From a virus, in the IMG/VR virus record IMGVR_UViG_2585428081_000003: DNA of 64,000 nt. One strand, given 5' to 3'. Below the pieces are notes generated by a model that saw only the letters and a program-made list of their open reading frames with translations, did no database searches and had not been told where the DNA came from. The translations under genes and the position numbers were made by a program. Below, in pieces: positions 16,717 through 36,667 of the stretch (position 1 is its first letter; every line of letters begins with the position of its first letter).

Positions 16717-16742
16717 TTTTATTCCTCCTTCGACATTTTCAA

Positions 16743-18411: not shown

Positions 18412-18414
18412 TTT

Positions 18415-18606
18415 TCACTCCAATCTTAAAAATCTCTTTATTTCCTCAACTGACTTTCCTTCCTCTGCCATTTTAATGACTTCTCCAGTAACTATTTCAG
18501 CTGCCATATCTGTATTTCTCTCTATTATCTTTCTTCTATGTTCTTCTGTAAGTTCCTCAAATGGAACTCCTTCAATTGTGACTATTATTCTTTCAGGAAC
18601 TGCCAT
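18415..18606 (-). CDS. Hypothetical phage protein
   Basis: ORF track. Confidence 0.5.
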   Translation of the reverse strand: MAVPERIIVTIEGVPFEELTEEHRRKIIERNTDMAAEIVTGEVIKMAEEGKSVEEIKRFLRLE

Positions 18607-18673
18607 ATCATCACCTCAATAGAATGTATGAATTTTCTAGTTTGTACTATTCCTATGCAGCATATTTTTATCT

Positions 18674-19366: not shown

Positions 19367-19368
19367 TT

Positions 19369-19599
19369 TTATTCAATATCTACAACTAACAAATTTTCAT
19401 ATCTCTCTTTCTCGTAATCATCCATTACTTCATAAGCTTTTTTATTAAACTTATTCTCATTAAAACTACTAACTGCATGACCATCTTCTATTACTGATAT
19501 AAAGCCTGTTCTTAAATAAAAATCATTCATATCTTGTACTTCAAGATCATCAACAAAGTTTTCCCTTGCCATTTTTCTCTCTCCTTTCTTTCTGTCCAC
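19369..19599 (-). CDS. Hypothetical phage protein
   Basis: ORF track. Confidence 0.5.
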   Translation of the reverse strand: MDRKKGERKMARENFVDDLEVQDMNDFYLRTGFISVIEDGHAVSSFNENKFNKKAYEVMDDYEKERYENLLVVDIE

Positions 19600-19642
19600 T
19601 CATCCCCGTTATGGTAAAATGTTCTAAAGGGGGTGAATAGAA

Positions 19643-19921
19643 TTGACCGAAAAAGAATTTCTTGATTTTTTCAATCAAATAGACGAAAACATTTTAAAAT
19701 TAGTAATTGAAGATTCTTGTAAACAGGGTCAAGAACACTACAATAATCTCATTCTAGAAGGCTGGTCACAAGATGAAGCATTGTTTGATTTGATAATGAA
19801 AACTTCATATCGAGCTATGAAATATGCTGTTATGGCAACCTTGTATTTCTCTACTAACTTAGAATCTGAAAAACCTAAAACTAAAGAAGAATTAAAGAAA
19901 CTTTTTACTATCATCAAATAA
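19643..19921 (+). CDS. Hypothetical protein (counter-oriented)
   Basis: ORF track, GGGGGTG RBS. Confidence 0.5.
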   Translation: MTEKEFLDFFNQIDENILKLVIEDSCKQGQEHYNNLILEGWSQDEALFDLIMKTSYRAMKYAVMATLYFSTNLESEKPKTKEELKKLFTIIK

Positions 19922-20112
19922 TTTTTTCAATCTAGGTCTTTCTAAATCTGGTTTTTGACAATTTAATTTATAATCATCCTTTGATTCAAGCTGCTCTTGG
20001 ACTAACTCTCCAAGAGTGGCAATCCTTTTTTCTAATTTTCCCTTTTCCACCTCTTGCACCTCCTTCTAAAATTTACTTCTTTTTTTGAATCGTTTTATGT
20101 GTGATAATTTAA

Positions 20113-20316
20113 CTATGCTGGTTTATCATCCAACAATTCTACTACTGATACTCCTAAGGCTTTTGCTATTCTTTTTATTTCCTCTACGTTTGGGATACTC
20201 TTTGAATTCTCCCAATCTGATATTGTAGTCTGTGGAATTAAAGCTCTTTTACCAAGTTCTGTTTGACTCATTTTTAGTTCAAGTCTTAAAGTTCTAATTC
20301 TATTACCTAGCTGCAT
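20113..20316 (-). CDS. Cro-like XRE regulator (switch 2)
   Basis: MSQTELGKRALIPQTTISDWE HTH. Confidence 0.85.
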   Translation of the reverse strand: MQLGNRIRTLRLELKMSQTELGKRALIPQTTISDWENSKSIPNVEEIKRIAKALGVSVVELLDDKPA

Positions 20317-20336
20317 TGACTTTCCTCCTCTCGCAT

Positions 20337-20448
20337 TAACGTTGTGTCGTTATCTTTAATTATATATTGAGTTTTTAGAATTGTCAACGGTGTATCGTTA
20401 ATATTTTTTAAATTTCTTTGATATAATTTATTTAACGATTGTCCGTTA
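20337..20448. promoter_or_regulatory. Three operators (T/C)AACG-N6-CGTTA with sigmaA promoter (switch 2)
   Basis: 20337-20352, 20385-20400, 20433-20448; TTGACA(20382-87)-17-TATAAT(20359-64) on minus strand. Confidence 0.8.
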
Positions 20449-20458
20449 TTATATTAAG

Positions 20459-20707
20459 GTGGTGCTAATCTTGACTATTGCTGAGGCTACTGCTCAAAGA
20501 ATATTAGATTTATGCCAAGAAAATAACATTAGTATAAATAAACTTGCTAACTTATCAGGGATTACTCAGTCAACTTTAAATAGCATTGTTAATGGTGAGA
20601 GTAAAAACCCCCAACTTAAAACTATCGTAAAAATTTGTTACGGCTTAGACATATCTTTAAAGACATTCTTTGATAGCTACATCTTTGATGACTTAGATGT
20701 TTTCTAA
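20459..20707 (+). CDS. XRE repressor (switch 2)
   Basis: SINKLANLSGITQSTLNSIVNG HTH; divergent from 20113 gene. Confidence 0.85.
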   Translation: MVLILTIAEATAQRILDLCQENNISINKLANLSGITQSTLNSIVNGESKNPQLKTIVKICYGLDISLKTFFDSYIFDDLDVF

Positions 20708-20730
20708 ATACATATAAGGAGTGTGATTTA

Positions 20731-21195
20731 ATGGCTAAGTATCTATGGGACTTAAATCTTGATGAAATCCCTTTAGGTTGGGAAAACACCTATCAAGATG
20801 CTTTAAATCAATGTCCAAAAGGTGAAATTATCGAAATGGCAGAAATGGATAGCCCAGATAGTATTATTACTAATCAATATTTTTATGATCCTGTTGGATA
20901 TAAAAATACTATCTATACCATTTTCAACGAATACAAAATAAAGGCTAAAACCTTATTTGAGTCTAGAAACAAACATGAAATCAAACCATTCATCAACGAA
21001 TTGATTAAATTTGACTGCATCTTATATGGTCTTCTTGCTGAATGGACATGTAACGGTAACGAATTTGATGGTTCTAGCTTTGATCCAAATTATTTAAAAA
21101 ATAATTTACTGGATTATAATTACTACTTTGGTTCTTACAATTTCGAAACTGACTTTGAGAAACAGTATAAAAAATACAAGTTAATCAGCCTATAA
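20731..21195 (+). CDS. Hypothetical protein
   Basis: ORF track 154 aa, GGAGTG RBS. Confidence 0.6.
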   Translation: MAKYLWDLNLDEIPLGWENTYQDALNQCPKGEIIEMAEMDSPDSIITNQYFYDPVGYKNTIYTIFNEYKIKAKTLFESRNKHEIKPFINELIKFDCILYGLLAEWTCNGNEFDGSSFDPNYLKNNLLDYNYYFGSYNFETDFEKQYKKYKLISL

Positions 21196-21442
21196 AGTTG
21201 TAATAGTGTCAGAGTTACATCTTATTTAAAAACTCTATTAACTTATTAGACTCTACTCTGACACTTTCACCTCTCTTCAATTTAATCGCACTATGCTTTC
21301 CAATTCCAAAAATTTCTTCTATTTTAGCTAATGACATATCACTAATAATTAAATTGAATTTTGTCTTAATATCCATCCCTTTCACCCCTTCCATTATTTA
21401 CTCCTTTTTTTGAATCTGATTTTGTGTGATAATTTATTTATG

Positions 21443-21670
21443 CTATACTATGCGATTGTTAGTTGAAGTTTCTTGAACCTCTTTAGTAAAAAAAATGCTC
21501 GGATCAACATTTAAAATTTTGGATATTTTTATTGCTCTATCAACAGAAAGTTTCACATTTCCATTTTCAAGGTGATTGTATCCGCTTTTATCCTTATAGC
21601 CAAGCTTTTCAGCCATATATTCTTGAGTATATCCTTTTTCTATACGTATCTTTTTTAAAATTTCACTCAT
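21443..21670 (-). CDS. Cro-like repressor (main switch)
   Basis: YTQEYMAEKLGYKDKSGYNHLENG HTH. Confidence 0.85.
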   Translation of the reverse strand: MSEILKKIRIEKGYTQEYMAEKLGYKDKSGYNHLENGNVKLSVDRAIKISKILNVDPSIFFTKEVQETSTNNRIV

Positions 21671-21686
21671 ATCAACACCTCCTATT

Positions 21687-21834
21687 GTTTAAGTTACTTC
21701 AACTCTATAATCTAATTATAGTTTAAATTTCTTCAACTGTCAACCTCTATTTTTAATTTTGTTGAACTTTTATAAACATTTGTTACAAATATAAAATTAT
21801 GTTATATAATTTAATTAGTTTAAGTATTTTAAAC
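21687..21834. promoter_or_regulatory. Operators GTTNAA-N5-(T/A)TNAAC with sigmaA promoter (main switch)
   Basis: 21687-21703, 21721-21737, 21761-21777, 21818-21834 plus a fifth at 21462-21478; TTGACA(21738-43)-17-TATAAT(21715-20) on minus strand. Confidence 0.8.
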
Positions 21835-21850
21835 TTGAAGGAGTGAAAAA

Positions 21851-22225
21851 ATGTCTACATTATCTAATAGAATTAGAGAACTACGAACAGAAAAAGAGCT
21901 TACACAAGAAGAGTTTGGTAAACTATTTGGGATTGTAAAATCCACGGTTTCACTATACGAAAGTGGCAAAAGCGCTCCTGATGATGAAATAAAAAAGAAA
22001 ATAGCCAAATATTTCAATGTATCCTTAGACTACTTAATGGGAGTATCTGATGTTAAAAATCCATATATCAACGATAAAGATTTAGATGAAGTAGATAAAT
22101 TTCTGCTTGAATTAAAAAAAGAAGCGGAAAAAGAGGGATTAGAATTCGACGAAACTTCTCCACAAGAACTTATTGAAACTTATAAATTATTAAAGGAATT
22201 TAAAAAGAGGACAAAAGGGGATTAG
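21851..22225 (+). CDS. CI/ImmR-like repressor
   Basis: LTQEEFGKLFGIVKSTVSLYESG...FNVSLDYLMG. Confidence 0.9.
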   Translation: MSTLSNRIRELRTEKELTQEEFGKLFGIVKSTVSLYESGKSAPDDEIKKKIAKYFNVSLDYLMGVSDVKNPYINDKDLDEVDKFLLELKKEAEKEGLEFDETSPQELIETYKLLKEFKKRTKGD

Positions 22226-22254
22226 ATTATTATTGGATAAAGGAGCGTGAAATC

Positions 22255-22638
22255 ATGAATAATGAAGAAAAAATTTATGACTTACTAGAAAAGATATATA
22301 TCGAGTTACAAGATACTAAAAAAGAATTGAAAAATTTTAAAGATGAAACTAGTTCTAGGTTTAACAAGATAGATACTAAATTTGATGAAACAAACACAAA
22401 AATAGACAATAACCATAAAGAAATCAATGCAAAGGTAGATATTAATCATGCGGAAGTTTTAAATGAACTCCAAGAGATTAAAGAACAAATCCACGAACTA
22501 GATACTAAAAATGCTGCTAATCATATTGCTACTAATACTAGATTAGATAAAGTATCGGATGATCTAGACTTCCTTACCCATAAAGAATTTCAAACTGAAA
22601 AAGAAATCTTTAAGCTAAAGAAAAAAATTGCTAAATAA
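22255..22638 (+). CDS. Coiled-coil hypothetical protein
   Basis: ORF track. Confidence 0.6.
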   Translation: MNNEEKIYDLLEKIYIELQDTKKELKNFKDETSSRFNKIDTKFDETNTKIDNNHKEINAKVDINHAEVLNELQEIKEQIHELDTKNAANHIATNTRLDKVSDDLDFLTHKEFQTEKEIFKLKKKIAK

Positions 22639-22667
22639 AATGCACTATAGAAGGAAGAAAGAGGCAA

Positions 22668-22796
22668 CTAACTTAACGGTAAATTGCCTTTTTTGTTATC
22701 AATTATGCACCTTATTGCTTCTTTCCTTTCTTCCTTTGTAAATTCTATGATTATTTTTTTGATTAAGTTTTTTATGCACTCTATATCTTCCACCAC
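22668..22796 (-). CDS. 42-aa protein under putative LexA control (candidate antirepressor)
   Basis: MVEDIECIKNLIKKIIIEFTKEERKEAIRCIIDNKKGNLPLS; AAAGGGGG RBS; promoter and SOS boxes upstream. Confidence 0.55.
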   Translation of the reverse strand: MVEDIECIKNLIKKIIIEFTKEERKEAIRCIIDNKKGNLPLS

Positions 22797-22827
22797 TCTT
22801 GCCCCCTTTATGTAAATATCGCAGTGG

Positions 22828-22875
22828 CGAACGTACGTTTAAATATATTATAGCAAACGTTTGTTCTTTGTGCAA
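22828..22875 (-). promoter_or_regulatory. sigmaA promoter with two Firmicutes LexA (Cheo) boxes
   Basis: CGAACGTACGTTTA (22828-41) and AGAACAAACGTTTG (rc 22854-67) vs consensus CGAACRNRYGTTYC; TTGCAC-17-TATAAT. Confidence 0.7.
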
Positions 22876-23192
22876 TGGATATTACCGTTTATTTTCATGT
22901 ATATAATTTAAATTTTCAATATATTTTTAATTTATAGATATAATACCATAATGCTATAAACGTGTCAACCAAGCCATTTATATCACTTATAGACAACATG
23001 GTTTTATATTTTGCCTATAGTATATTTTAGTATTATAGGCAATAAAAAATCGGTGCGAAGTTAATCACACCGATTAGATTAGTTTTATAAATAAATCAAA
23101 CGGAAAGGATGATTGATATGTGTGTGTTAAGTTTATAATTGTCACTTATTTTAAAAGCCAATACTTGCAACTATTTACTGAGGAGGATTAAT

Positions 23193-24638
23193 GTGAATAA
23201 CGAAAATTATACAAGAAAACAAATTAATATTAACGATATACTTCTTGATACTGAAAATCCAAGGTTTGAAAAGGTTAATAATCAAGAAGAAGCACTTGAA
23301 ATTATGATTCGTGAGTATGAGGAAAAAATATATAACTTAGCTAAACATATCACAGAAAATGGTATGAATCCTACTGAGCTTTCGGCAGTTATAAAATCTG
23401 ACAATAAGTATATAATTTTAGATGGCAATAGAAGGTTAACAGCCCTAAGGATATTAAATAATCCCGATTTATTAAATCAAGATTTTGAAAAGCTGAAATC
23501 TAAAATCATGAAATTAGATAGAGCAAATATACCAGATACGATTAACGCTATCGAATTTGAAAGTGAAGAAGAAGCAAATTTATGGATTAAGTTAAAACAT
23601 ACTGGTGAAAACGATGGACTCGGAACAGTTGAATGGACTGCCTTACAACAATCACGTTTTGATGATGACAAATATCCACTTTCCATACAATTACTTAAAT
23701 ATATGGAAAGTGCAGACTTAATAGATGAATCTATTTCTAAAAATATAATAAACTTAAAAATTACAAACCTAGAAAGACTTTTAACAGATCCCGATGTTAG
23801 GAATATATTGTCAATTACACGTTCTAAAAACGAATTACATTTTCCTATACCAAACGGAAAAATAAAAAACATCTTAAATAGCCTGTTGATGGAGCTATTA
23901 TCAGAAGACTTCACTGTAAATAAAATACGTAATAAACCTGATAGAATCAATTTCATGAATTCTTTTAAGGAAAAATATAACTTAACAGAGGATGATATTA
24001 AAGATTTGAAAGATTGTGAAGTAACCACTGTTAAGGAGTATGAAAATTTAAAAGAAAAAACAGATGATAAAGCAAGCCCTAAGGAGGCACCTAAGGAAAG
24101 TACAAAAGATAATAAAAAAGATACTATAGCTAATAAAACTATTCCCAAACCTAAACCACCTGAAATGCCAAGCACAAAAGATAGATATACTCTAATACCA
24201 AAGGACTTTAATCTTACCATTAATAATTCTAAAATCAATGATATATATAAAGAACTAAAAGAAATATCGGTTGATGATTACCCAAATGTAATCGGTGCTT
24301 CATTCAGAGTATTTTTGGAATTATCTATTGACTACTATATAGAAGAAAACAAGGATGAAATAGATATAATAGCAAACGATAAGCTTAAAAACAAGCTTGA
24401 AAAAGTGAAAACCCATTTGAACAATAAATTAAAGCTAGATAGCAACCAACTTAAAGACATTAATAGGGCCATTGGTAGCAATGACAACATAGTTTCTATT
24501 GACATATTACATGGCTACATTCATTCAACAGTAGCTCAAGCAAGTGCAGATGGACTAAAAACTACTTGGAATAATTATGAGAGGTTTTTTGAACTTCTCT
24601 ATGAAGTTCTTAATGATTTACCTCTGGCCAAAGCATAA
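23193..24638 (+). CDS. ParB-like N-terminal domain + HEPN-like C-terminal domain protein (ORF track starts 23139)
   Basis: DILLDTENPRF and ILDGNRRLTAL ParB motifs; GASFRVFLELS and LHGYIH helical C-terminus; GAGGAGG RBS precedes GTG at 23193. Confidence 0.65.
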   Translation: MNNENYTRKQININDILLDTENPRFEKVNNQEEALEIMIREYEEKIYNLAKHITENGMNPTELSAVIKSDNKYIILDGNRRLTALRILNNPDLLNQDFEKLKSKIMKLDRANIPDTINAIEFESEEEANLWIKLKHTGENDGLGTVEWTALQQSRFDDDKYPLSIQLLKYMESADLIDESISKNIINLKITNLERLLTDPDVRNILSITRSKNELHFPIPNGKIKNILNSLLMELLSEDFTVNKIRNKPDRINFMNSFKEKYNLTEDDIKDLKDCEVTTVKEYENLKEKTDDKASPKEAPKESTKDNKKDTIANKTIPKPKPPEMPSTKDRYTLIPKDFNLTINNSKINDIYKELKEISVDDYPNVIGASFRVFLELSIDYYIEENKDEIDIIANDKLKNKLEKVKTHLNNKLKLDSNQLKDINRAIGSNDNIVSIDILHGYIHSTVAQASADGLKTTWNNYERFFELLYEVLNDLPLAKA

Positions 24639-24677
24639 TTCTCATGATATAATAGGATATAGGGGGGTGTTTTAGCT

Positions 24678-25520
24678 ATGACCAGGACTCTTTCTCCGCT
24701 TAGATATCCAGGTGGTAAAACCAAGCTATATAAATATACAAAAAAACTAATAGAACATAATAATTTAGTAGGTTGTACTTATGTTGAACCGTTCGCTGGT
24801 GGATGTGGATTAGCCATTGGATTACTTCACACTAATATAGTTAATAATATTATTCTAAATGATATTGATAGATCCATTTATGCATTTTGGAAAACTGTAT
24901 TAGATAGAAATGAAGAACTAATTGAGAAAATTGACACTACTCCAATTACAATAGATGAATGGCACAAACAAAAAGAAATACAAGATAGTAAATTTGATGC
25001 AGATTTATTCGAATTAGGATTTTCCACTCTTTTTTTAAACAGGACTAACTTTTCTGGTATAATAAAAGCTGGTCCTATTGGCGGTCATGATCAGAACGGT
25101 CCTAATAAACTTGATTGTAGATTTAATAAAAAAGATATAATTAGAAAACTCAAGTTGATAAAGGCTCATAGAGAGCAAATCCAATTTTACAATGAGGACG
25201 CAATTGATTTCTTTAATATATTAAACGAATTGAATCATGATAATTTTTTTATTTTTTTAGATCCTCCATATTTTGAAAACGGACCAGGTCTTTATACCAA
25301 TTTTTATACTGAAGAAGATCACAGAAACCTAGCTCGACATGTATCTGAGTTAAATCATAATTGGATTGTTACTTATGACAATGTTGATAAAATTAAAGAA
25401 ATATACCAAGAATATAATTTTGAGTCTAAAGAATACTCATTGAGATATAGCGCTTACAATAAATATGAGGGTACAGAAATAATGTTTTATTCAAATAACC
25501 TTATTCCTGTTAATTTCTAA
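24678..25520 (+). CDS. dam: DNA adenine methyltransferase (Dam/D12 class)
   Basis: LRYPGGKT, YVEPFAGG, FLDPPY motifs. Confidence 0.92.
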   Translation: MTRTLSPLRYPGGKTKLYKYTKKLIEHNNLVGCTYVEPFAGGCGLAIGLLHTNIVNNIILNDIDRSIYAFWKTVLDRNEELIEKIDTTPITIDEWHKQKEIQDSKFDADLFELGFSTLFLNRTNFSGIIKAGPIGGHDQNGPNKLDCRFNKKDIIRKLKLIKAHREQIQFYNEDAIDFFNILNELNHDNFFIFLDPPYFENGPGLYTNFYTEEDHRNLARHVSELNHNWIVTYDNVDKIKEIYQEYNFESKEYSLRYSAYNKYEGTEIMFYSNNLIPVNF

Positions 25521-25620
25521 TTTCATAATATCGTTATAAAAAGCTATGATTAAATCAATAGCTTTTCTTTTTACTATTTTTTCAATATAATAAACATATA
25601 ACTACCAATGAGGTGATCCA

Positions 25621-27207
25621 ATGAAAATAGCAATATATTCTAGGAAAAGTAAATTTACTGGCAAGGGCGAAAGTATTCAAAACCAAATAGAAATGTGTAA
25701 AGAGTATTGCAACAAACACTTTGGCCAATGCGAATTTATTATTTACGAAGATGAAGGGTTTTCTGGCGGAAACACAGATAGACCCCAATACAAACGTATG
25801 ATGGAAGATGTTAGAAAGAAAAAATTTCAGGCAGTTGCATGCTATAGACTAGATAGAATCTCCCGTAATGTTTCAGATTTCTCCCAGACATTAGAAGAAT
25901 TAAATAATAAGAACATAGCTTTTATTTCAATAAATGAACAATTTGATACATCCACACCAATGGGAAGAGCCATGACCTATATAGCAAGTGTTTTTGCACA
26001 GCTTGAAAGGGAAACTATTGCAGAAAGGGTCAGAGACAATATGCTACAACTAGCACGTTCTGGAAGATGGCTTGGAGGAATTGCTCCTACAGGGTATAAA
26101 AGTGAACCTATTACATACTTAGACAGCAATATGAAAGAGAAAAAAATGTACAAGTTGTCTCCTGTAAAACAAGAATTAGAAGTTGTAAAGCTTATATACA
26201 AAAAATATTTAGAATTTCAATCCTTAAGTCAATTAGAAACATACTGCTTGCAAAATAATATAAGAACAGTCAATAATAGAGACTTTCAAAAATATACTTT
26301 AAGGACTATATTGACTAATCCTGTATATTCTAAAGCTGACCAAAGTGTGTATAACTATTTCTATTCTAGGGAAGCTCAAATTTGCAATAACAAAAATGAA
26401 TTTACTGGTAAATATGGCATTATGGCTTATAATAAAAACTTGGTTAAAAAAGGACAATCTGTCAAAACTAAAAATATGGATGAATGGATTATAGCTATAG
26501 GTAAACACAAAGGAATAATAGAAGGAAGTGAATGGGTTATGGTACAAAATACATTGAATAAGAATAAAAGCCTTGCTCCAAGACAAGGGACTTCCGCTGC
26601 TGCTATGCTTTCAGGATTACTCTATTGCAAAAATTGTGGCAATTTTATGAGGGTTAAATATGGCCAAAAGAAAAAAAATAGTGATGAAAGGCACTATTAC
26701 TATGTATGCAGTATGAAAGACAACTCTAGAGGTTCCAGATGTAATATGAAAAATCTAAAAGGTGAAGATACTGATCAGTATGTAATAGAAAAATTAAAAG
26801 AGATGATTGAATCTGGAATATTAAAAGATATAGATAATGCTAAAAAAAATATTGAGGACAAAAAGAAAATAAATAAAAATGTCTATGACAAAATAACTGC
26901 TAATGAAAAAGCTATAGAAAATTTATTGAAACAGCTTTCACAAAATGAAAATGAAACTGTAGCAAAATATATTTTCTCTGAAATAGAAAAACTAGACAAA
27001 GAAAATAAAGAATTAAAATCCAAATTAGATAAATATGACAGTGAAACAAATATTACAAATTTAGAACTATTTAAAGAGGCTGTAGTGCGCTTTTATGAGT
27101 CTATAGATGGGGTACCTTATGAACAGAAAAGAAACCTTATACAAGGAATTGTGAAACGTATAGAATGGGATGGAAAAGACCTTCATATTGATATTTTTGA
27201 TATATAA
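25621..27207 (+). CDS. Large serine integrase of the prophage
   Basis: IYSRKS catalytic Ser, YEDEGFSG, RLDRISR, recombinase domain, CKNCG..C zinc ribbon, coiled coil. Confidence 0.95.
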   Translation: MKIAIYSRKSKFTGKGESIQNQIEMCKEYCNKHFGQCEFIIYEDEGFSGGNTDRPQYKRMMEDVRKKKFQAVACYRLDRISRNVSDFSQTLEELNNKNIAFISINEQFDTSTPMGRAMTYIASVFAQLERETIAERVRDNMLQLARSGRWLGGIAPTGYKSEPITYLDSNMKEKKMYKLSPVKQELEVVKLIYKKYLEFQSLSQLETYCLQNNIRTVNNRDFQKYTLRTILTNPVYSKADQSVYNYFYSREAQICNNKNEFTGKYGIMAYNKNLVKKGQSVKTKNMDEWIIAIGKHKGIIEGSEWVMVQNTLNKNKSLAPRQGTSAAAMLSGLLYCKNCGNFMRVKYGQKKKNSDERHYYYVCSMKDNSRGSRCNMKNLKGEDTDQYVIEKLKEMIESGILKDIDNAKKNIEDKKKINKNVYDKITANEKAIENLLKQLSQNENETVAKYIFSEIEKLDKENKELKSKLDKYDSETNITNLELFKEAVVRFYESIDGVPYEQKRNLIQGIVKRIEWDGKDLHIDIFDI

Positions 27208-27245
27208 CTATGTAGCACTTTGTCAGCATAGCATTATCTATACAC
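27208..27245. other. Prophage attachment junction (hybrid att) at the sigK DN^E codons
   Basis: sigK frame continues to ...ATAGATAATG then diverges (GCT instead of GAA); imperfect inverted repeat GTATAG-ATAATG-CTATGC; ~25 bp from integrase stop. Confidence 0.7.
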
Positions 27246-27310
27246 CTAGCTGCATAAGTTGCCAATCTGGTGCCTTTTTTTTTGTCATAGGTGGATATGG
27301 CTTTTATAAG
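27233..27310 (-). CDS. sigK: Internal fragment (mini-exon) of sporulation sigma factor K, region 2.2-2.4
   Basis: Translates to LIKAISTYDKKKGTRLATYAARCIDN with no start, RBS or own stop; similarity to sigma factor ends abruptly on both sides. Confidence 0.9.
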
Positions 27311-27323
27311 AGTAAATGTATCA
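27305..27323. other. ICE attachment junction (hybrid att) at the sigK G^LIKA codons
   Basis: Expected IGTIG-LIKA replaced by TFT-LIKA; 13 bp from the recombinase stop. Confidence 0.65.
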
Positions 27324-28895
27324 TTAAAACAGCCAATGGATTTTAACTACTTGTTCTCCTGTTATTTTGTTTTTTTCTCCAATTTCTATAAAATCTATAA
27401 GTTCATTTACCATTGTATGAGTTAATTTATCAAAATCCCTATATTTTTTTACTGTTTTAGTCCACTCTCCTATATCATTTGCTTTATTACTTATTTCCTC
27501 AATTTGTTTTTCAATGTTTTTTTTCTTTTGTTCACAAAATTCTTTTCTTTTATTGAATTCAGAATTGAGACTAACAAACATTTCCTCTGAAATTATTCCC
27601 TTTACTTTATCAATATATAATGATTTTAACAACTGGGTTTGTTCCTCCAAGTACATGTCAGTCTTATCGAATTCTTTTTCAAGACTTTTAACTTTATTGT
27701 TTGCTTCACTTTCAATTTTTAATATATTAACAGCATTATCTTCATCTAAATAATTATTTATATACTCTTTTATTTTATTTGTAACAACCTCTTCAAGAGT
27801 ATCTAATCTAATGTAATGAGATGTGCACATTTTATTTTCTTTAGGGGTTTTTAAATAAAGTTTACACCTCAAAAAGGAATATTTTCCTTTATCTTTTGAA
27901 GTTGTACCCTTTTCCATAGTACTTCTACAATCTAAACATTTTACTTTAGTTGCAAATATATGTGCCTGACCCTCACATGTACTTCTTTGTCTAAGTTTAA
28001 AACGTCTTTGCACCTCTAAAAAAACACTTTCCTTAACAATCGGCTCATGAGTGTTTTTCACAACAATCCATTCATCTTTAGGAATCGTAACAAACTTTTT
28101 AGATTTATAACTTACTTTTTTAATTTTTCCTTGTGCCATATGTCCAGCATATAAAGGATTTTGAAGTATCCTTTTAACCGTAGTTCTATTCCAAAGGCTA
28201 TTATTATCAACAGTTTTTTTGTAATTTGATCCTGATCGTTTTTTATAAATTGTAGGATTAGGTATTTGTCTTTTATTTAATTCATGAGTTATTCGTTGAA
28301 TTCCAAAGCCTTCTAAATACCAATCATAGATTTGCCTTACAATTTTAGCAGCTTCTTCATCTACAATAAGTTTATTATTGTCATTTGGATCTTTTATATA
28401 TCCAAAGGCAGCAAACGAACCAATAAATTTACCTGATTTTCTTTTAACATCAAAAGCAGCTTTGACATTGTCGGAAACATCCTCGCAATACCATTCATTA
28501 GTTAAACCAATAATCTGCCTTTGCTTTTTGTTGCCTTTGTTGGAAGTATCCGCATTGTCAACTAAACCAATAAATCTAATGCCCCATTCTATGAATTTTT
28601 TATGAATATATTTTTCTACTGCTTCCATATCTCTTGTAAATCTTGATTGACTTTTACATATAATCGTATCAAACTTCCCAGCTTCCGCATCTTTTAAAAG
28701 TCTATTCCAATCAGGTCTATCTGCATCTAGCCCAGACCAATCATCATCAGAATAAACATCATATATCTGCCAGTTATTTGCTAATGCATAACCTTCCAAA
28801 AGTGCCCTTTGATTTTGAATACTCTCTGATACATCTGAAGGATTGATTTTATCTTTATCTTCTTCTGAAAGTCTACAATACAGAGCTACTTTCAA
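27324..28895 (-). CDS. Large serine recombinase of the ICE (SpoIVCA-like)
   Basis: LYCRLS, YSDDDWSG, KSQSRFTR, GSFAAFGY, CLDC..C zinc ribbon. Confidence 0.95.
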   Translation of the reverse strand: MKVALYCRLSEEDKDKINPSDVSESIQNQRALLEGYALANNWQIYDVYSDDDWSGLDADRPDWNRLLKDAEAGKFDTIICKSQSRFTRDMEAVEKYIHKKFIEWGIRFIGLVDNADTSNKGNKKQRQIIGLTNEWYCEDVSDNVKAAFDVKRKSGKFIGSFAAFGYIKDPNDNNKLIVDEEAAKIVRQIYDWYLEGFGIQRITHELNKRQIPNPTIYKKRSGSNYKKTVDNNSLWNRTTVKRILQNPLYAGHMAQGKIKKVSYKSKKFVTIPKDEWIVVKNTHEPIVKESVFLEVQRRFKLRQRSTCEGQAHIFATKVKCLDCRSTMEKGTTSKDKGKYSFLRCKLYLKTPKENKMCTSHYIRLDTLEEVVTNKIKEYINNYLDEDNAVNILKIESEANNKVKSLEKEFDKTDMYLEEQTQLLKSLYIDKVKGIISEEMFVSLNSEFNKRKEFCEQKKKNIEKQIEEISNKANDIGEWTKTVKKYRDFDKLTHTMVNELIDFIEIGEKNKITGEQVVKIHWLF

Positions 28896-28988
28896 TTTTA
28901 AATTATACCTCCTTTTACCTAACTAATAGGAGATATAACCACTTACTTTATTCTACTTTAGTATAACAAAATAAGTGGTTATAATCAA

Positions 28989-29117
28989 TTAAATAACTTT
29001 TTCTAACTCTTTTTTCTTCATAATTTTTATAAATATTTCATTGAATTTAGTTGCTCTTTGTTTTTTATCCTGGCTTTGAAATTTTTCTTCTACAACTATC
29101 TTTGTATTGCTACTCAA
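28989..29117 (-). CDS. 42-aa basic protein upstream of recombinase; candidate recombination directionality factor
   Basis: MSSNTKIVVEEKFQSQDKKQRATKFNEIFIKIMKKKELEKVI; TTG start, AAAGGGGG RBS. Confidence 0.55.
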   Translation of the reverse strand: MSSNTKIVVEEKFQSQDKKQRATKFNEIFIKIMKKKELEKVI

Positions 29118-29157
29118 AATTATCCCCCTTTCTTTTAAGCTCCCTATGTGTTTACTA

Positions 29158-29186
29158 ATATATGATTGTAAAAGCTTGTATAATTA
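29158..29186 (-). promoter_or_regulatory. Candidate mother-cell sigmaE promoter with SpoIIID-like box
   Basis: AATTATA-14 nt-CATATATT; overlapping TTATACAAGC matches WWRRACARNY at 9/10. Confidence 0.45.
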
Positions 29187-29269
29187 CCGTATTTAGACTA
29201 ATTTTATATGAATACAAAAACAAAATAATTATTTTATATAGTTAATTCTGCTAATCTATTTTTAGTAAT

Positions 29270-29296
29270 AAAAAAAGATAGCCTATTAAAGCTATC
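29270..29296 (-). terminator. GATAGC/GCTATC terminator (copy 1 of 3)
   Basis: Hairpin + T-run; copies at 31515-31540 and 32540-32566. Confidence 0.75.
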
Positions 29297-29323
29297 CTAT
29301 ATATGTATAATTTCTATTCAATT

Positions 29324-29647
29324 TTATCTTTCTATTTCCCAATCTTTTTCATCTTCAATATTAGTATTTATGCTTTCATCCATAGTAACTGCTACTTCTT
29401 TAATTGTTTCTTGATGCAATTCTAATAACATTATTTTTTCTATATTATTAACATCCGGAAAAACAACTTTTATATTAAGTTTAATAAGTTGTCTTATCTG
29501 TTTCATATTATTATTTATGATTTTTTGAATTGTTGTATGAACAGGTACGGCATTCCCATTTTCCTTATTTCTCATCAGCTTTGGATCTTTAACTTTATTA
29601 AAAAAATCATCTTTAATATGATACGCATATCCCTCTTTAAATTCCAT
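29324..29647 (-). pseudogene. Internally deleted CptN-like type III toxin
   Basis: GYAYHIKDDFF...LMRNKENGN start and VVFPDVNNIEKIML end, middle missing; no antitoxin repeats upstream. Confidence 0.65.
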
Positions 29648-29683
29648 AAAAAACCGCCTTATTTTGTAATTACATAATTTATA

Positions 29684-31105
29684 TTAGTTTCCCTTATCTT
29701 CTGGCTTTTTACTAATATTGCCAATATCATATTTATTTTTGTCACTTAATGGTTTCCAATTGTTTATTCTAGATATCACCTTACAAATATATTCTTTTGC
29801 ATTTTCGTCTTGAAGTAATATTTTTGCTTTTTGATTATTAAAAAATATATGTGGAGATATCTTATCCGCATATGTTTTTTTATTTACATTAATAAATTCT
29901 AACCCATACCTTAAATCTTCATAATCTAAATATACTTTATAATCTGTTCCCATTAATAACTTTTCAAGCTTATTTTTAATAATAGTATAATTGGTTTCAT
30001 TAACAACTAGTTTTGCTTGTAATATAATATCCCTTTCACATATAGTAGGATTCTTTTCTGTTAGCTTCCTCCCATATATTTTCATAAAATTTTTGTTAGT
30101 TAAATATAATTCACTTTCTATTCTTTGCTTATCATCTCTAAACTTGAAATAAATATTTTTATCATCTAATCCTGATATGGATACTCTGTCTCCTGTCAAC
30201 ATATTTTTAAAATTTTCTAGTAGTCCATATATAAAATCTTTTTCATAAATCAAAGGAATTATTTGATTACTAATAATTGAGGAATTGTTTCTTATGTCAT
30301 TAATTAATTCCTCTTGATTATATGAATCTTGATTTATAATCCAATTGTAGATTTGCTTTGTGCATATGAGTTTATTGCCTTTATTTTTATCAATAAAACT
30401 CCATGCTTGTATCATTAATTTTTTTCTTTCATCCATAAGAATTCCAAATCTTTCTAAACTTTTTTCAGATCCCATCCCTTTTATATAATTTTTGAAAATT
30501 ATATTTGCTTCTTTATGAATATTTAATATGTTGTTATGTAAATTTGCAGGCAAAATTATAGGTAAATTATTATATTCAAAATTCCATTTTGATAACATTT
30601 CCCTAGCATCAGGAAATACTTTATTAAAATCTTCTAAATACTTTAATTCAGCATATTCTCTCATCCTTTTATTTTTATATTGTTTTGGGGTCATTCCTTT
30701 TGGTAGTTTAGCATCTATACCTGGAAATTTTTCAATACACTCAGAACCAACATTTAATTTTTTATTATTATACCTATTGATTATATAATATATATATACG
30801 TTCCTTCTGCCACATAAAGAGCACTGTACTCTATCTTTTACGTTTGGTGGATCTATTATATCCATAGTTCCAGTTCCATACCACTCTTGTTCTGCTTGCT
30901 TCTTAATATCTTTAAAAACAAATAAGATTAAATTTTTTAGTTCATCATCAAAATCTTTATTCCCTATAATATCTTTTTCATAAATCCTTTTATATTTCTT
31001 TAAAACTTTCTTTAACTTAGGATATCTTTCTATAATTACACTATTCAATACAAGCTGTCTTTCTTCCTTATCTATCAATACCCTACGTTTTCTTTTCTTT
31101 TTCAT
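29684..31105 (-). CDS. Hypothetical 473-aa protein with zinc-finger-like motif
   Basis: CSLCG...VGSEC motif; Lys/Asn/Ile-rich. Confidence 0.6.
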   Translation of the reverse strand: MKKKRKRRVLIDKEERQLVLNSVIIERYPKLKKVLKKYKRIYEKDIIGNKDFDDELKNLILFVFKDIKKQAEQEWYGTGTMDIIDPPNVKDRVQCSLCGRRNVYIYYIINRYNNKKLNVGSECIEKFPGIDAKLPKGMTPKQYKNKRMREYAELKYLEDFNKVFPDAREMLSKWNFEYNNLPIILPANLHNNILNIHKEANIIFKNYIKGMGSEKSLERFGILMDERKKLMIQAWSFIDKNKGNKLICTKQIYNWIINQDSYNQEELINDIRNNSSIISNQIIPLIYEKDFIYGLLENFKNMLTGDRVSISGLDDKNIYFKFRDDKQRIESELYLTNKNFMKIYGRKLTEKNPTICERDIILQAKLVVNETNYTIIKNKLEKLLMGTDYKVYLDYEDLRYGLEFINVNKKTYADKISPHIFFNNQKAKILLQDENAKEYICKVISRINNWKPLSDKNKYDIGNISKKPEDKGN

Positions 31106-31181
31106 AGTGTTTTCCCCCTTTTTTATCTCTATATGCTTAATTAGACAAAAAAAGGGGAAATCCTTCTTTTTAGCTACAACC

Positions 31182-31481
31182 TTATTTTAAAGCTTTATTC
31201 CCTCCTTTCTTCTTCCTCATCTCTTCAATCACTCCCCAAGTTCTAGCCCAACATTCAAATTCTTCTTTAGGATCAGTGTAATGACTTATACCCATGCATC
31301 CTAAGTCATTTAAACCATCTTCATCATCCATAAATACATAATCTTCAACATTTTTAGAATGACAATAAGGACAAATTATTTCTTCTGTAGCATTTTCTCT
31401 TTGATATTCACTCAAAATAAACTCTTTGTCGCAAGTAAAACAATGATACTTTTCTAAATTATCCAATACATATGAAGACAT
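31182..31481 (-). CDS. Small zinc-ribbon protein
   Basis: CFTC...CPYC. Confidence 0.6.
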   Translation of the reverse strand: MSSYVLDNLEKYHCFTCDKEFILSEYQRENATEEIICPYCHSKNVEDYVFMDDEDGLNDLGCMGISHYTDPKEEFECWARTWGVIEEMRKKKGGNKALK

Positions 31482-31514
31482 AAAAATCCCCCTTAATTTT
31501 ATTTTTTATATAAT

Positions 31515-31540
31515 AAAAAAGATAGCTCATAAAAGCTATC
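31515..31540 (-). terminator. GATAGC/GCTATC terminator (copy 2)
   Basis: Hairpin + T-run ~27 nt downstream of 383-bp element copy 1. Confidence 0.75.
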
Positions 31541-31566
31541 CTATATATGTAAAATTGTTATTATTT

Positions 31567-31949
31567 TATATGTACAATCTATAATATTTCAAGCTATCCT
31601 TGGTTAAAGGATACATAGCACCAAAATATGGTAACCATCGGAAACCAATATTCTAGTAACTCTCCGATTTTATCCGAGCCACTCTCCAGGGGATCTCCTA
31701 GGACTGAATGGAAGTATCATTATTTCCCCCCTGCTGGTCATGGCGATATAGGTTACCAACCTATTTTGAGTGTTGAATATGGATATTGAAAAAATATCCG
31801 TCCACTCTTTCGCTCTTCCCTACTAGGCAGCAAGAGTAATGTACTTGAAATACTTATATCCATTTTTCAAAGTTCAAATGCTTGTACTACTTTTATATAT
31901 TTAAATATGTGGGCTTATTTAAAAGCTCATACATATATAAATCAAAGTT
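31567..31949 (-). ncRNA. 383-bp structured non-coding element, copy 1 (candidate ncRNA)
   Basis: Own sigmaA promoter upstream and terminator downstream, many hairpins, no ORF in track; 6 substitutions + 2 indels vs copy 2. Confidence 0.55.
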
Positions 31950-31981
31950 GGTATAACGAAGAAATAATTGGTTATAATCAT

Positions 31982-32010
31982 ATTGTATATTTTCGTATAC
32001 ATAATGTCAA
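31982..32010 (-). promoter_or_regulatory. sigmaA promoter with palindromic operator
   Basis: TTGACA-17-TACAAT; TGTATA-N6-TATACA palindrome overlapping it. Confidence 0.7.
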
Positions 32011-32073
32011 GTATAATAAACTTTGATTTTATTGTTTTATTTCTTTTTTTAATTTTTTATATTACAATAGTAA

Positions 32074-32511
32074 TTGAGGAGTGATGAAATGGATACGTTG
32101 CAAGAAATACTAATAAATAAAAGAAAAGATTTAGGTCTAAGCCTTCGTAAAGCAGCAAAATTAATAGGCATCAGTCATTCTTATTTAAATAATTTAGAAA
32201 AAGGCATTGATCCTAATACGAAAGCTCCTGTCAACCCCACTCCTGAAACACTGTCTTTAATTAGTGAAGCCTATAAAATTGACTATAATGAATTAATGAT
32301 AGCAGCTGGTTATATAACTGTTGGTGAAAATACAAAAGTATATGACCAAGATGAAACCAAAGAAGGAATAGAGGATATGCTTAATTATTATAGAAGTCTA
32401 CAGCTTTCAAATTTAATTTTAGAGCTATCCCCTAAAAATCAAGAAAGAGTAATTGAGTATGTAAAACTATTAAAATTAAGCGAAAAACAAGGTTTAGACT
32501 TAGACGAATAA
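32074..32511 (+). CDS. XRE-family repressor
   Basis: LSLRKAAKLIGISHSYLNNLEKG HTH. Confidence 0.85.
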   Translation: MRSDEMDTLQEILINKRKDLGLSLRKAAKLIGISHSYLNNLEKGIDPNTKAPVNPTPETLSLISEAYKIDYNELMIAAGYITVGENTKVYDQDETKEGIEDMLNYYRSLQLSNLILELSPKNQERVIEYVKLLKLSEKQGLDLDE

Positions 32512-32539
32512 ATAATTTTAATAATATTTATTTTGCTAT

Positions 32540-32566
32540 AAAAAAAGATAGCCTATAAAAGCTATC
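32540..32566 (-). terminator. GATAGC/GCTATC terminator (copy 3)
   Basis: Hairpin after toxN; likely bidirectional. Confidence 0.75.
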
Positions 32567-32594
32567 CATAACGCACATAATTTCTATATAATTT

Positions 32595-33167
32595 TTATCT
32601 CTCTATTTCCCAATCATTTTTATTTTTATTTTCTTTTTCAATATCCCTATCTTCTATTTTCTTTGTAGCAGCTACTTCTTCAATTGGCTGTAGATAAGAT
32701 TGATATTCTAAGCATTTTTCTTCTAGAAGCTTAAAATCACAACAATTTTTTATCAGCGTTTTATCATAACCAGAATTATATCGTTTGTAAATATAATTAG
32801 CTTTAGATATTATTTTATCTTTAATGGAATTGCAATATTGCCATTCTTCTAATAGCAACCTTCTATATTTATATTCCTCTTTAGAAAAATTTTTTATTTT
32901 TATTTCATTCTTAGGAATAGGGATCATAAAACTAAACCTTATACTACTAATTGTTTCTCCATTAGAATTTTTTATTAGGATATTTGTTTTTTGTTGCTTG
33001 CTAAATGATGAAATTGGTGCAAAATAATCAAAACCATCCACCGAAAGCACAACACCACATACAAATTTATTATTTTTATCATAATTTATATTTGGTATTT
33101 TAGATTCAAATAATTTTAAATAATTTATGTACTGATTTGAAACCTCATAGAACATTAACTTCCCCAT
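32595..33167 (-). CDS. toxN: Type III toxin, ToxN/AbiQ family endoribonuclease
   Basis: YINYLK.F, GVVL, YFAPISS, SIRFSFMIP motifs; repeat array and terminator upstream. Confidence 0.9.
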   Translation of the reverse strand: MGKLMFYEVSNQYINYLKLFESKIPNINYDKNNKFVCGVVLSVDGFDYFAPISSFSKQQKTNILIKNSNGETISSIRFSFMIPIPKNEIKIKNFSKEEYKYRRLLLEEWQYCNSIKDKIISKANYIYKRYNSGYDKTLIKNCCDFKLLEEKCLEYQSYLQPIEEVAATKKIEDRDIEKENKNKNDWEIER

Positions 33168-33186
33168 AACATCCCCCTAAAAAGTA

Positions 33187-33216
33187 GAATGCGACTAGAA
33201 AATTCTAGTCGTATTC
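33187..33216 (-). terminator. ToxI/ToxN intergenic terminator
   Basis: GAATACGACTAGAA-TT-TTCTAGTCGCATTC hairpin then TACTTTT. Confidence 0.85.
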
Positions 33217-33222
33217 AGAATT

Positions 33223-33333
33223 ACAAGTCGCTCTTACTGTGGCGAAACACCCTGTATAAACAAGTCGCTCTTATTGTGGCGAAACACCCTGTATAAGCAA
33301 GTCGCTCTTACTGTGGCGAAACACCTTGTATTA
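33223..33333 (-). ncRNA. toxI: Type III antitoxin RNA (ToxI/antiQ-like), 3 x 37-nt repeats
   Basis: Repeats 33223-59, 33260-96, 33297-333 without spacers; TTGACA(33401-06)-17-TATAAT(33378-83) promoter. Confidence 0.9.
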
Positions 33334-33442
33334 TTAATTTCTTAACTTAAATTTGATAGTTTCCTATCGTTAATATTATTATACTTAAATACGTAAATTA
33401 TGTCAAATATATATGTTGTACTAAGACGATATATATAAAAAC

Positions 33443-33825
33443 TATATGTACAATCTATAATATTTCAAGCTATCCTTGGTTAAAGGATACATAGTACCAA
33501 AATATGGTCACCATCGGAAACCAATACTCTAGTAACTCTCTGATTTTATCCGAGCCACTTCTCCAGGGGATCTCCTAGGACTGAATGGAAGTATCATTAT
33601 TTCCCTCCTGCTGGTCATGGCGATATAGATTACCAACCTATTTTGAGTGTTGAATATGGATATTGAAAAAATATCCGTCCACTCTTTCGCTCTTCCCTAC
33701 TAGGCAGCAAGAGTAATGTACTTGAAATACTTATATCCATTTTTCAAAGTTCAAATGCTTGTACTACTTTTATATATTTAAATATGTGGGCTTATTAAAA
33801 GCTCATACATATATAAATCAAAGTT
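33443..33825 (-). repeat. 383-bp structured non-coding element, copy 2
   Basis: ~98% identical to 31567-31949; begins right after stop of the HTH gene 33828-34046. Confidence 0.9.
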
Positions 33826-33827
33826 AA

Positions 33828-34046
33828 TTAGTTATTATTTATGATAATTTCGTTTAAAAAAATATCATCATCTTCTGTTCTTAATATCTTTTTTAAAATT
33901 AAACTAACTTCTAAAGATGGAGTAATTATGCCTAGTTCATAGCTTGTATATGTACTTCGGCTTCTACCTATCTTTTTAGCTATATCCTTTTGAGTCAATC
34001 CTAATTCTTTTCTTCTCTTAATCATATTCTTCCTTATTTTAATCAC
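33828..34046 (-). CDS. Cro-like XRE regulator
   Basis: LTQKDIAKKIGRSRSTYTSYELG. Confidence 0.85.
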   Translation of the reverse strand: MIKIRKNMIKRRKELGLTQKDIAKKIGRSRSTYTSYELGIITPSLEVSLILKKILRTEDDDIFLNEIIINNN

Positions 34047-34077
34047 TCCCTAAAAAATAGATAAAATCTATAATTAA

Positions 34078-34106
34078 ATTATAGTCATTTTAAATGACCA
34101 TGTCAA
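34078..34106 (-). promoter_or_regulatory. sigmaA promoter with operator in the spacer
   Basis: TTGACA-17-TATAAT; perfect palindrome GTCATTT-T-AAATGAC at 34084-34098. Confidence 0.8.
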
Positions 34107-34196
34107 TAGTTTTACCATGGAATGTTTTTATTAATGACATTAGTGGATATTAATTGTTTTAATTACTATAATCAAATTAATAGGGGAGGTCATATT

Positions 34197-34598
34197 ATGA
34201 ATAATATTTCTTTATTTAAATATAGGCTTAAAACATTAAGAAAAGAATATAAAATGACCCAAGAAAACTTAGCTGAAAAACTTGGACTTGTTCGAACTGC
34301 TATTGCAAACTATGAAACAGGAAGAACTACTCCTGATGCTGAAACATTAAGTTTAATAGCTGATATTTTTAATACCACTACTGATTATCTTTTGGGTAGA
34401 ACAGATATTAGAAAACGTGTAAATAATAGTGAAAGAATAGAAAAAAAGCCCTCTATTAAAGATGAACTCTCTGAAGAAATACATAATCTATCTCCTCAAA
34501 GCCAAGAAGAAATAAAAAAACTAATTGATTTATATAAAATAAAAGATATGCAAGATAAAAATACTGAGCTTTCGGATGAAATCTCGAAGCCAGACTAA
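34197..34598 (+). CDS. ImmR-like XRE repressor (ORF track starts 34122)
   Basis: MTQENLAEKLGLVRTAIANYETG; GGGGAGGT RBS before ATG 34197. Confidence 0.85.
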   Translation: MNNISLFKYRLKTLRKEYKMTQENLAEKLGLVRTAIANYETGRTTPDAETLSLIADIFNTTTDYLLGRTDIRKRVNNSERIEKKPSIKDELSEEIHNLSPQSQEEIKKLIDLYKIKDMQDKNTELSDEISKPD

Positions 34599-34804
34599 AG
34601 AAAAGTATACAGATTAGGAAAACGTTATTATTGAGTGAACTTAAGGGTAAGTAAGTGGACAAGCAATATAAATTTACATATATGCTTGAAAAGTATTATT
34701 CCGCAAGGAATATATTTTTTTAGTCCTTCCTGCGGAAAATGTTGGTGTTTATGGAAACCGATTGTAGAATTATGTCGAAAAATATTTTGTGTTGGAGTGA
34801 TCTC

Positions 34805-36040: not shown

Positions 36041-36232
36041 AGGATTTTATAAGTAGTATAAAAGTTTATATTTATTGAAATTTTATTCTGAAAGGCATAT
36101 ATTTTTTAATCATGTTACCAAAAACATTAGTATTTATAGGAGGTGATTGTAAGGTTTTGCAGAGTATTATTGTATAGTATTTGTGTTATTTAAATTTGGG
36201 AATAATCTAGTTTTGCAAAATATTTAAAGAAG

Positions 36233-36550: not shown

Positions 36551-36667
36551 AAAACCTGATAATTAAAACAAATATTCTTATAATAATATTATTCTTTTAC
36601 TAGAATACTTTATAAATAATGATGATATCTCATAATTTACTAATACGAAAAAGAAGGGAGAATTATA

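Follow-up and report, generated by a model that had tools for sequence, protein, structure and literature searches.

How can sigmaK be made by a bacterium whose sigK gene is cut by two mobile elements, each with a recombinase of its own? The question is raised by the IMG/VR virus record IMGVR_UViG_2585428081_000003, the whole 64,000 nucleotides of which are referred to here as the window. The textbook example of a programmed rearrangement of bacterial DNA is the skin element. A sequence-only reading of the window had noted two converging genes for large serine recombinases (LSRs) and had taken the gap between them for a fragment of sigK that lacks a start codon, left between one phage and one conjugative element. 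The remainder of the gene was predicted to lie outside the window, with a 5′ piece ending in DLISIGTIG past position 64000 and a 3′ piece starting with EILM before position 1, both on the minus strand and joining in frame with the fragment; no other intact sigK was expected. These predictions have been borne out, as described below, and the remaining question is what the arrangement means for sporulation.

A sigK gene in three pieces

The two recombinase open reading frames, at 25621-27207 on the plus strand and 27324-28895 on the minus strand, leave a gap of 116 nt. Read on the minus strand the gap is FNDTFT|LIKAISTYDKKKGTRLATYAARCIDN|AMLTK, with no start codon. In codons (window 27100-27450, minus strand) it runs TTT AAT GAT ACA TTT ACT | CTT ATA AAA GCC ... 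TGT ATA GAT AAT | GCT ATG CTG, preceded on that strand by the stop codon of the 523-aa recombinase. The central part, LIKAISTYDKKKGTRLATYAARCIDN, is a "mini-exon" of 26 codons (78 nt, 27310->27233, minus strand), which aligns without gaps to the SigK of a congener and fits between two further pieces of the gene. The window corresponds to C30:40596-104595 of the host genome (G000), in a contig, C30, of 348 kb. The 5′ piece (C30:119652->119389, minus strand), beyond window position 64000, is translated from MSMTFWFF... to ...DLISIGTIG and is followed by LAKVS and a stop codon. The 3′ piece (C30:30461->30096, minus strand), before window position 1, starts with EILM, is preceded by LLDSIDN and ends with ...AFENQSC and a stop codon. 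On the same contig and strand as the mini-exon, the 5′ piece is 51.5 kb and the 3′ piece 37.4 kb away from it.

A search of the whole genome with the SigK model TIGR02846 gave three colinear minus-strand matches, all on this contig: the 5′ piece with 121 bits (120.6; C30:119353-119619), the mini-exon with 45 bits (45.4; E 8e-12; C30:67813-67992) and the 3′ piece with 178 bits (178.5; model positions 108-226; C30:30114-30473). The piece scores of 120.6, 45.4 and 178.5 have a rough sum of 344, the joined protein itself being unscored; the curated cut-off is 298.65 bits, and the intact SigK of the congener (G001) scores 361.5 bits. No second sigK was found in this search, the genome being 99% complete. 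The sole other strong match, with 258 bits, is SigE, which scores 396 bits on TIGR02835 (cut-off 349), adjoins a sigG-like gene and is also present in every relative with an intact sigK. Since the 258-bit match is SigE and the genome is 99% complete, there is no uninterrupted sigK in this genome.

Both insertions lie within sigK codons, and joining the pieces in silico restores a reading frame of 235 aa that is colinear, without gaps, with the intact SigK of the congener and about 97% identical to it (6 aa differences). Once the two elements are taken out in silico, the locus is colinear with the congener's over 1704 nt, of which 1.2 kb lie upstream of the gene, at 90.6% identity with one gap. 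The comparison gave a pS of 0.26, a pN of 0.011 and a dN/dS of 0.04 for sigK, and none of the three pieces has a frameshift or stop. A low dN/dS relative to the congener leaves the insertions undated; they may be too recent to have been purged. It is essentially certain that sigK in this genome is split in three by a prophage and a conjugative element (ICE), and that there is no other copy. The N-terminus of the joined protein (MSMTFWFFLGGLLNPFLIFSGYISSTNSFPNPL...) looks like a pro-sequence.

The nearest named relatives of the host, by the C-terminal piece of SigK, are Tissierella simiarum, Anaerosalibacter and [Clostridium] ultunense, with 81-85% identity. The host is probably a Tissierellales-like anaerobic spore former. 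Its spoIIID, spoIVA and spo0A genes are intact and above curated cut-offs, and sigE is likewise intact.

Two elements, two recombinases and two attachment sites

The element to the left of the mini-exon, element A, is a siphovirus-like prophage of 37.4 kb (C30:30471-67826; 37,366 bp between cores), which occupies window positions 1..27231. PHROGs matches and the open reading frame map place the major head protein at 1805-2779, a MuF-like minor head protein at 4089-5681, the portal at 5662-7110, TerL at 7126-8535 and TerS at 8528-9061. A 1157-aa tape measure, tail proteins and an endolysin were recognized by PHROGs outside the window. With this full structural module, element A is a complete-looking temperate siphovirus prophage, in line with the original proposal of a phage.

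The prophage recombinase, LSR_A (25621..27207, plus strand, 528 aa), has Pfam Resolvase, Recombinase and Zn_ribbon_recom domains and ends 25 nt from the core of its insertion site, site A. The phage integrases nearest to it, with 42-43% identity, are those of Terrisporobacter phage TPELB_ph1, Clostridium phage HM T and C. perfringens phage CP51. Its closest relatives (53-58% identity), in Maledivibacter, Anaerosolibacter and a MAG, adjoin a truncated yunB-like gene (L032, L033, L035; ...KIKPTVLTIAEIKA...YQDLYFIRTD..GN...MQANA), named by eye from its sequence. A relative in Clostridium moutaii (L034) adjoins a PilB/GspE-type ATPase gene, also named by eye, that is broken at Walker A.

The 48-nt gap upstream of LSR_A, which follows a terminator, contains no sporulation-type promoter, only a weak sigma70-like -10, and no recombination directionality factor (RDF) for the phage recombinase was found. 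By analogy with sprB of SPbeta, it may be encoded elsewhere in the phage. Where active phages reside in sporulation genes, the RDF under sporulation control can be encoded at a distance from the integrase, as is sprB of SPbeta (PMC4191935), so that little weight attaches to the lack of such a promoter at LSR_A.

The prophage is inserted at codons CI(D/E)N|EILM, here CIDN|EILM, the common skin site. A 10-bp core, ATAGATAATG, marks the site A junction (27232..27241, minus strand) and recurs where the prophage ends on its far side (C30:30461-30470). The rebuilt attP_A reads ...GACAGCATAG ATAATG CTATGCTGAC... and contains an inverted repeat, CAGCATAG-ATAATG-CTATGCTG, centered on the AA of AATG; the crossover is likely to be at this AA. 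AATGA falls in the N-E codons of B. subtilis sigK. A phage-side junction at these codons had been proposed from the window alone, and it was found at AAT|GAA. Since the rebuilt sigK reads GAT AAT GAA at site A, it contains AATGA, as reported for the recombination site of B. subtilis (PMC10745906).

Element B, to the right of the mini-exon, is 51.5 kb in length (C30:67906-119386; 51,483 bp between cores), and its part in the window extends over 27311..64000. Pfam matches and the open reading frame map give a VirB4/TraG-like ATPase at 44807-46630 (a weak TraG P-loop/AAA_10 match), a T2SSE-type ATPase at 53915-55243 and a VirD4-type coupling protein at 59245-60735 (T4SS-DNA_transf/TraG-D_C). Outside the window Pfam identified a MobA/VirD2 relaxase, a DUF3991-Toprim primase, RadC, Fic, ParB and ParA. 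By gene content element B is an ICE, with relaxase, coupling protein, VirB4-like ATPase, ParAB and the integrase LSR_B within one bounded element, so that the earlier assignment to a conjugative element also stands.

The ICE cargo at 34739-41615 resembles defense genes. It comprises a nuclease-related NERD protein (34739-36040), a 705-aa ATPase with two GHKL domains (36668-38785), behind it a 507-aa protein without a family match, and a convergent C5 cytosine methylase (40383-41615).

The ICE recombinase, LSR_B (27324..28895, minus strand, 523 aa), has Pfam Resolvase, Recombinase and zinc ribbon domains and a DUF4368 tail. It ends 13 nt from the crossover of its own site, site B. LSR_A and LSR_B both have all three LSR domains; they are only 23% identical, and the two systems should therefore be orthogonal.

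Relatives of LSR_B are also found in non-sporulation genes, for instance beside threonine dehydrogenase-like and cysteine synthase-like genes named by eye. In three Lachnospiraceae genomes (L019, L021, L023, from ~4590) they adjoin a subtilisin-like protease gene that is broken at the HGTHV motif of the active site, and in others a fragment of a YkuD-type L,D-transpeptidase (L025) or a Cys-rich protein with CGCQRPC repeats (L020). The protease, YkuD and Cys-rich genes may be further cases of interrupted sporulation genes. Among the relatives examined, neither LSR_A nor LSR_B has one beside sigK in another species, and for this reason specificity for sigK could not be shown for either recombinase lineage.

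Large serine recombinases as a rule use a 2-bp crossover, with little identity between attB and attP. At site B (codons IGTIG|LIKA, 78 bp upstream of site A) the two ends have only the dinucleotide CT in common (GGA CT|C GCT and ACT CT|T ATA), located at 27309..27310 on the minus strand and at the far end of the ICE at C30:119387-119388. The rebuilt attP_B, AATGATAC-ATTTACT-CT-CGCTAAG-GTATCATAAA, is self-complementary at 36/62 positions, and its center of symmetry is exactly the CT that yields the in-frame join GGA CTT ATA (G-L-I). The rebuilt attB_B is non-palindromic, with self-complementarity at 12/62. A palindrome around the central crossover was thus found in both attP_A and attP_B.

Upstream of LSR_B the order is: terminator of the preceding gene, a sigmaE-like motif, a ribosome binding site with a 42-aa ORF, an inverted repeat with a sigma70-like site, and LSR_B. 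The 42-aa ORF (28989..29117, minus strand) is, judged by its conservation, a real gene: in each of the eight LSR_B-type loci that were aligned (8/8), a homologue immediately precedes the recombinase gene. In these loci the LSR identities are 41-58% and the consensus of the small ORF is IVVEExFKSxDxKxR...N.L.I.IIKKS. No name for this family was found in Pfam, NCBIfam, the source annotation, a protein atlas or a search of 5.8 billion proteins. Its conserved position makes it a candidate recombination directionality factor.

The small ORF is preceded, at a distance of about 40 nt and in the right orientation, by a sigmaE-type promoter-like motif, ATA-N14-CATATATT (29157..29181, minus strand). On the two strands of the window together, the pattern ATA-N14-CATAYANT was counted 4 times, where chance would give 1.5; the motif is short, lies in AT-rich DNA and was picked post hoc. 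That a sigmaE-type promoter drives the 42-aa ORF is suggestive only. Between this ORF and LSR_B is a perfect 11-bp inverted repeat, ATAACCACTTA...TAAGTGGTTAT (28935-28982, minus strand), which overlaps the sigma70-like site TTGATT-17-TATACT and could be an operator or attenuator.

Occurrence in nature and possible explanations

A stretch of 801 bp that spans both junctions was searched in public sequence data sets. It was present whole, each time in one contig, in two isolate data sets (X1 and X3), and metagenomes of wastewater, digesters and fermentations from four further studies, dated 2018-2025, contained at least 0.92 of its sampled words. Because the stretch is contiguous in independent data sets, it is not an assembly artefact, and a chimera made in assembly has been ruled out.

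The states of the junctions were further traced by alignment of the contigs of four runs to window 26000-28600. In a sludge metagenome (X13) one contig passes from the mini-exon at 27310 directly into the end of the 5′ piece, present as its reverse complement TCCAATGGTTCCAATAGATATGAGATCATC; this is the empty state of site B (depth 26). In another, 27232 is followed by the start of the 3′ piece, likewise reverse-complemented (ACGAATAGTCATAAGTATTT), which is the empty state of site A (depth 19). The phage-occupied junction at site A was also found there at a depth of 20, roughly equal to that of the empty site. A phage-only state is found in a bioreactor metagenome (X15), where the mini-exon in one contig is flanked on one side by the terminus of a phage variant, 5% diverged, and on the other by the 5′ piece. 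A 50-nt contig of the same metagenome joins 27212-27241 to GCTATCTAAAAGACAACATT, which is the predicted attP_A with one substitution, and therefore derives from excised or replicating phage. At both sites the breakpoints in the metagenomes coincide exactly with the junctions placed in silico, contigs switching partner at the site A core and joining the 5′ piece at 27310; both sites are therefore genuine, independently occupied att sites. Empty sites in metagenomes could come from strains that never carried the elements, and so are no proof of excision. The isolates X1 and X3 gave the integrated state and no excision products, though contigs drop rare variants.

One MAG contig, CBETVX010000080.1 (position 1-3), begins exactly at the site B codon (query residue 89, LIKA...). 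The agreement may be accidental, or may reflect a further insertion at site B that broke the assembly.

Among 400 sampled genomes of the same class, ~315 have a strong match to the sigE/sigK model; sigK is split in ~35 of these, and is in two strong pieces in ~33. Nearly all the split genes, in this survey and in three relatives, are divided at site A (model positions 104-118), and a few at ~137-146; site A is also the break in nine of 80 further sigK loci. Site B (IGTIG|LIKA) was seen in none of ~45 other split sigK genes.

In one genome (G138) the element that divides sigK at site A measures only ~1.6 kb (C33:28033-28371, 29990-30349), hardly enough to hold a recombinase gene and below the 2.6-kb minimum of a published survey. 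In another (G273) the pieces are on opposite strands ~1.3 kb apart (C1:179928-180362, minus, model 2-146; C1:181647-181919, plus, model 137-226), so that reconstitution would need inversion, not excision.

The double interruption, of a kind that the sequence-only reading did not know from earlier descriptions, is not unique. In a complete genome of 4.6 Mb from another family (G424), sigK is also in three pieces (locus L039, G424:C1:1665000-1680000; ~1107-1433, 7997-8112 and 13502-13786 within it), separated by two small LSR elements at sites that differ from those described here. The order is ...CIEN, a 6.5-kb element with a 552-aa LSR, a 32-aa mini-exon (EILMQIRASKKIQNEVSLQDPIGVDKEGNEIT), a 5.4-kb element with a 523-aa LSR, and LIDLISND...; the sites are CIEN|EILM and GNEIT|LIDL, with shared cores AAATG and AATGAAATAACAT. 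A further genome (G121) may have a third doubly split sigK. Its 5′ and 3′ pieces are 48 kb apart on one contig and the matching middle piece adjoins a 512-aa LSR on a separate contig of 8.5 kb (the loci concerned are C3:3226-3345 and loci in C10), a layout that reflects either a problem of the draft assembly or a non-colinear arrangement.

Published sigK genes with skin elements, 15 in one survey, are in two fragments only (bioRxiv 10.1101/2022.02.25.481979). In full-text searches of a limited library, neither a sigK with two interruptions nor a natural ICE within this gene was found described. The locus departs from the known cases in three features: the double interruption, an intervening element that is an ICE, and a new attB within sigK.

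The reading that we prefer, with a probability of about 0.7, is that the sporulating mother cell restores sigK by excising both elements. As each has its own serine recombinase inside the gene, both must be excised to rebuild it. In the mother cell each recombinase, with its own directionality factor, would excise its own element as a circle. Only double excision would give a transcribable pro-sigmaK gene, a two-input AND condition on top of processing of the pro-sequence, and the forespore chromosome would retain both elements. Control of the ICE would resemble that of skinCd or gin, with a sigmaE-type promoter in front of the 42-aa partner ORF, the candidate RDF, and with the recombinase gene behind that ORF served by its own sigma70-like promoter-like site. 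Mother-cell excision is favored because the three pieces and the core sporulation genes examined have remained intact, the double allele has been maintained in natural populations and site A is the common skin site; it is also favored by the precedent of published sigK-resident elements, which excise during sporulation (PMC5025042, PMC10745906), and by the sigmaE-like promoter and conserved small ORF beside the ICE recombinase.

The same facts bear on the view that the two insertions have knocked out sigK, leaving an asporogenous lineage, or a poor sporulator, that lives vegetatively in digesters and sludge and whose elements excise only in the course of their own life cycles, by prophage induction or conjugation, and without a developmental cue. 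That no sporulation-linked excision has been observed and no sporulation promoter found for LSR_A agrees with this view, as do the origin of all double-state runs in nutrient-rich engineered anaerobic systems and the integration of LSR_B relatives in non-sporulation genes as well. We nevertheless think it unlikely. Besides the intact state of all three pieces and of spo0A, spoIIID and spoIVA, the double allele recurs across years and studies, site A is used by dozens of spore formers, and the excision of published sigK elements and the sigmaE-like promoter before the small ORF beside LSR_B count against it.

Possible signs of sporulation-specific control are seen in element B, in the sigmaE-like motif before the conserved 42-aa ORF, and nothing comparable was seen in element A. 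This difference would be explained by a mixed state, in which the ICE is domesticated for mother-cell excision by way of sigmaE and the 42-aa ORF, and the phage is a recent, fully active lysogen that leaves the mother-cell chromosome through its own induction circuit, so that the efficiency of sporulation depends on the phage. The complete appearance of the phage, the attP_A junction in X15 and the near-equal depths of occupied and empty site A in X13 are in keeping with such a state, to which, however, we assign a small probability: the RDF can be distant, as in SPbeta (PMC4191935), which weakens the argument from LSR_A's promoter, and the 5%-diverged phage variant at the same site points to a long association. 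There is hardly any chance that the mini-exon is a relic or an artefact of assembly, with an intact sigK elsewhere. Genome-wide only the three pieces and SigE were found, and the pieces, contiguous across the junctions in independent data sets, join exactly; a relic beside an intact gene is accordingly excluded as an explanation.

If mother-cell excision of both elements is correct, they would form a natural two-input recombinase logic gate, and conjugative elements too, not phages alone, could interrupt an essential developmental gene safely in the dead-end mother cell. In its fullest form this reading holds that a natural two-recombinase AND gate acts on sigmaK; that an active phage and the first natural ICE to serve as a sporulation gene-intervening element are both dependent on, and tolerated through, mother-cell excision; that the near-invariant IGTIG|LIKA contains a new attB; and that small proteins of ~35-50 aa form a new RDF family under sigmaE. 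We put this whole set forward tentatively, at somewhat less than even odds. The locus might yield tools, namely two LSR/att pairs that are orthogonal and act at defined sites, and a possible new family of RDFs. For annotation it should be noted that standard pipelines miss triple-split genes such as this sigK.

Relation to known intervening elements

The interruption of one gene by two independent elements, one of them an ICE, is a departure from the single-element skin. In B. subtilis the skin recombinase SpoIVCA acts with the RDF Skr (PMC6957869, PMC4191935), the gene for which precedes spoIVCA behind a sigmaE promoter (PMC6957869). The present locus resembles that of B. subtilis in the AATGA of site A, in the pro-sequence-like N-terminus of SigK and, for element B, in a small ORF upstream of the recombinase behind a sigmaE promoter-like motif. 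It differs in having two elements, with a complete-looking phage, where B. subtilis has one defective element. In comparison with SpoIVCA, the nearest relatives found for LSR_A adjoin a yunB-like gene.

In skinCd of C. difficile the recombinase CD1231 is constitutive, and the 72-aa RDF CD1234 is under the control of sigmaE and SpoIIID (PMC5025042). Element B is similar in layout, with a sigma70-like promoter for the recombinase and a small partner ORF behind a sigmaE-type site, in this case recognized by motif only, and it too has its own attB inside sigK. The insertion sites and recombinases differ, and skinCd is a degenerate element of 14.6 kb in contrast to an ICE of 51.5 kb. SigK of C. difficile also has no pro-sequence, in contrast to the pro-sequence-like N-terminus of the SigK described here.

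Functional phages in sigK are known from C. perfringens (PhiS63; PMC3442830) and Alicyclobacillus (PMC13141910). Both are inducible, complete temperate phages that use sigK as attB with a 10-nt core, and their precise excision restores the gene. Element A appears to be of the same kind: a complete-looking temperate phage with an attB in sigK and a 10-nt core. PhiS63, in contrast to element A, is inserted in the 3′ part of sigK near the sites of skinCd and skinCt, and in both published cases the phage is the sole interruption.

For element B a parallel among non-phage elements in mother-cell sporulation genes is gin, in gerE of B. cereus ATCC 10987 (PMC5595907), which is small, lacks conjugation machinery and resides in another gene. 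An ICE has so far acted as a sporulation gene-intervening element only artificially, by means of swapped recombination units (PMC6957869).

Multiple interruption is best known from the heterocyst genes of cyanobacteria, of which nifBHDK in Calothrix NIES-4101 is in 13 parts (PMC11249958). Phylum, developmental program and element types are different, with neither an ICE nor a complete phage among the latter. What the two settings share is a single developmental gene interrupted by more than one element with a recombinase of its own; in cyanobacteria these elements must all be removed in the terminally differentiated cell, as would be the case here in the mother cell.
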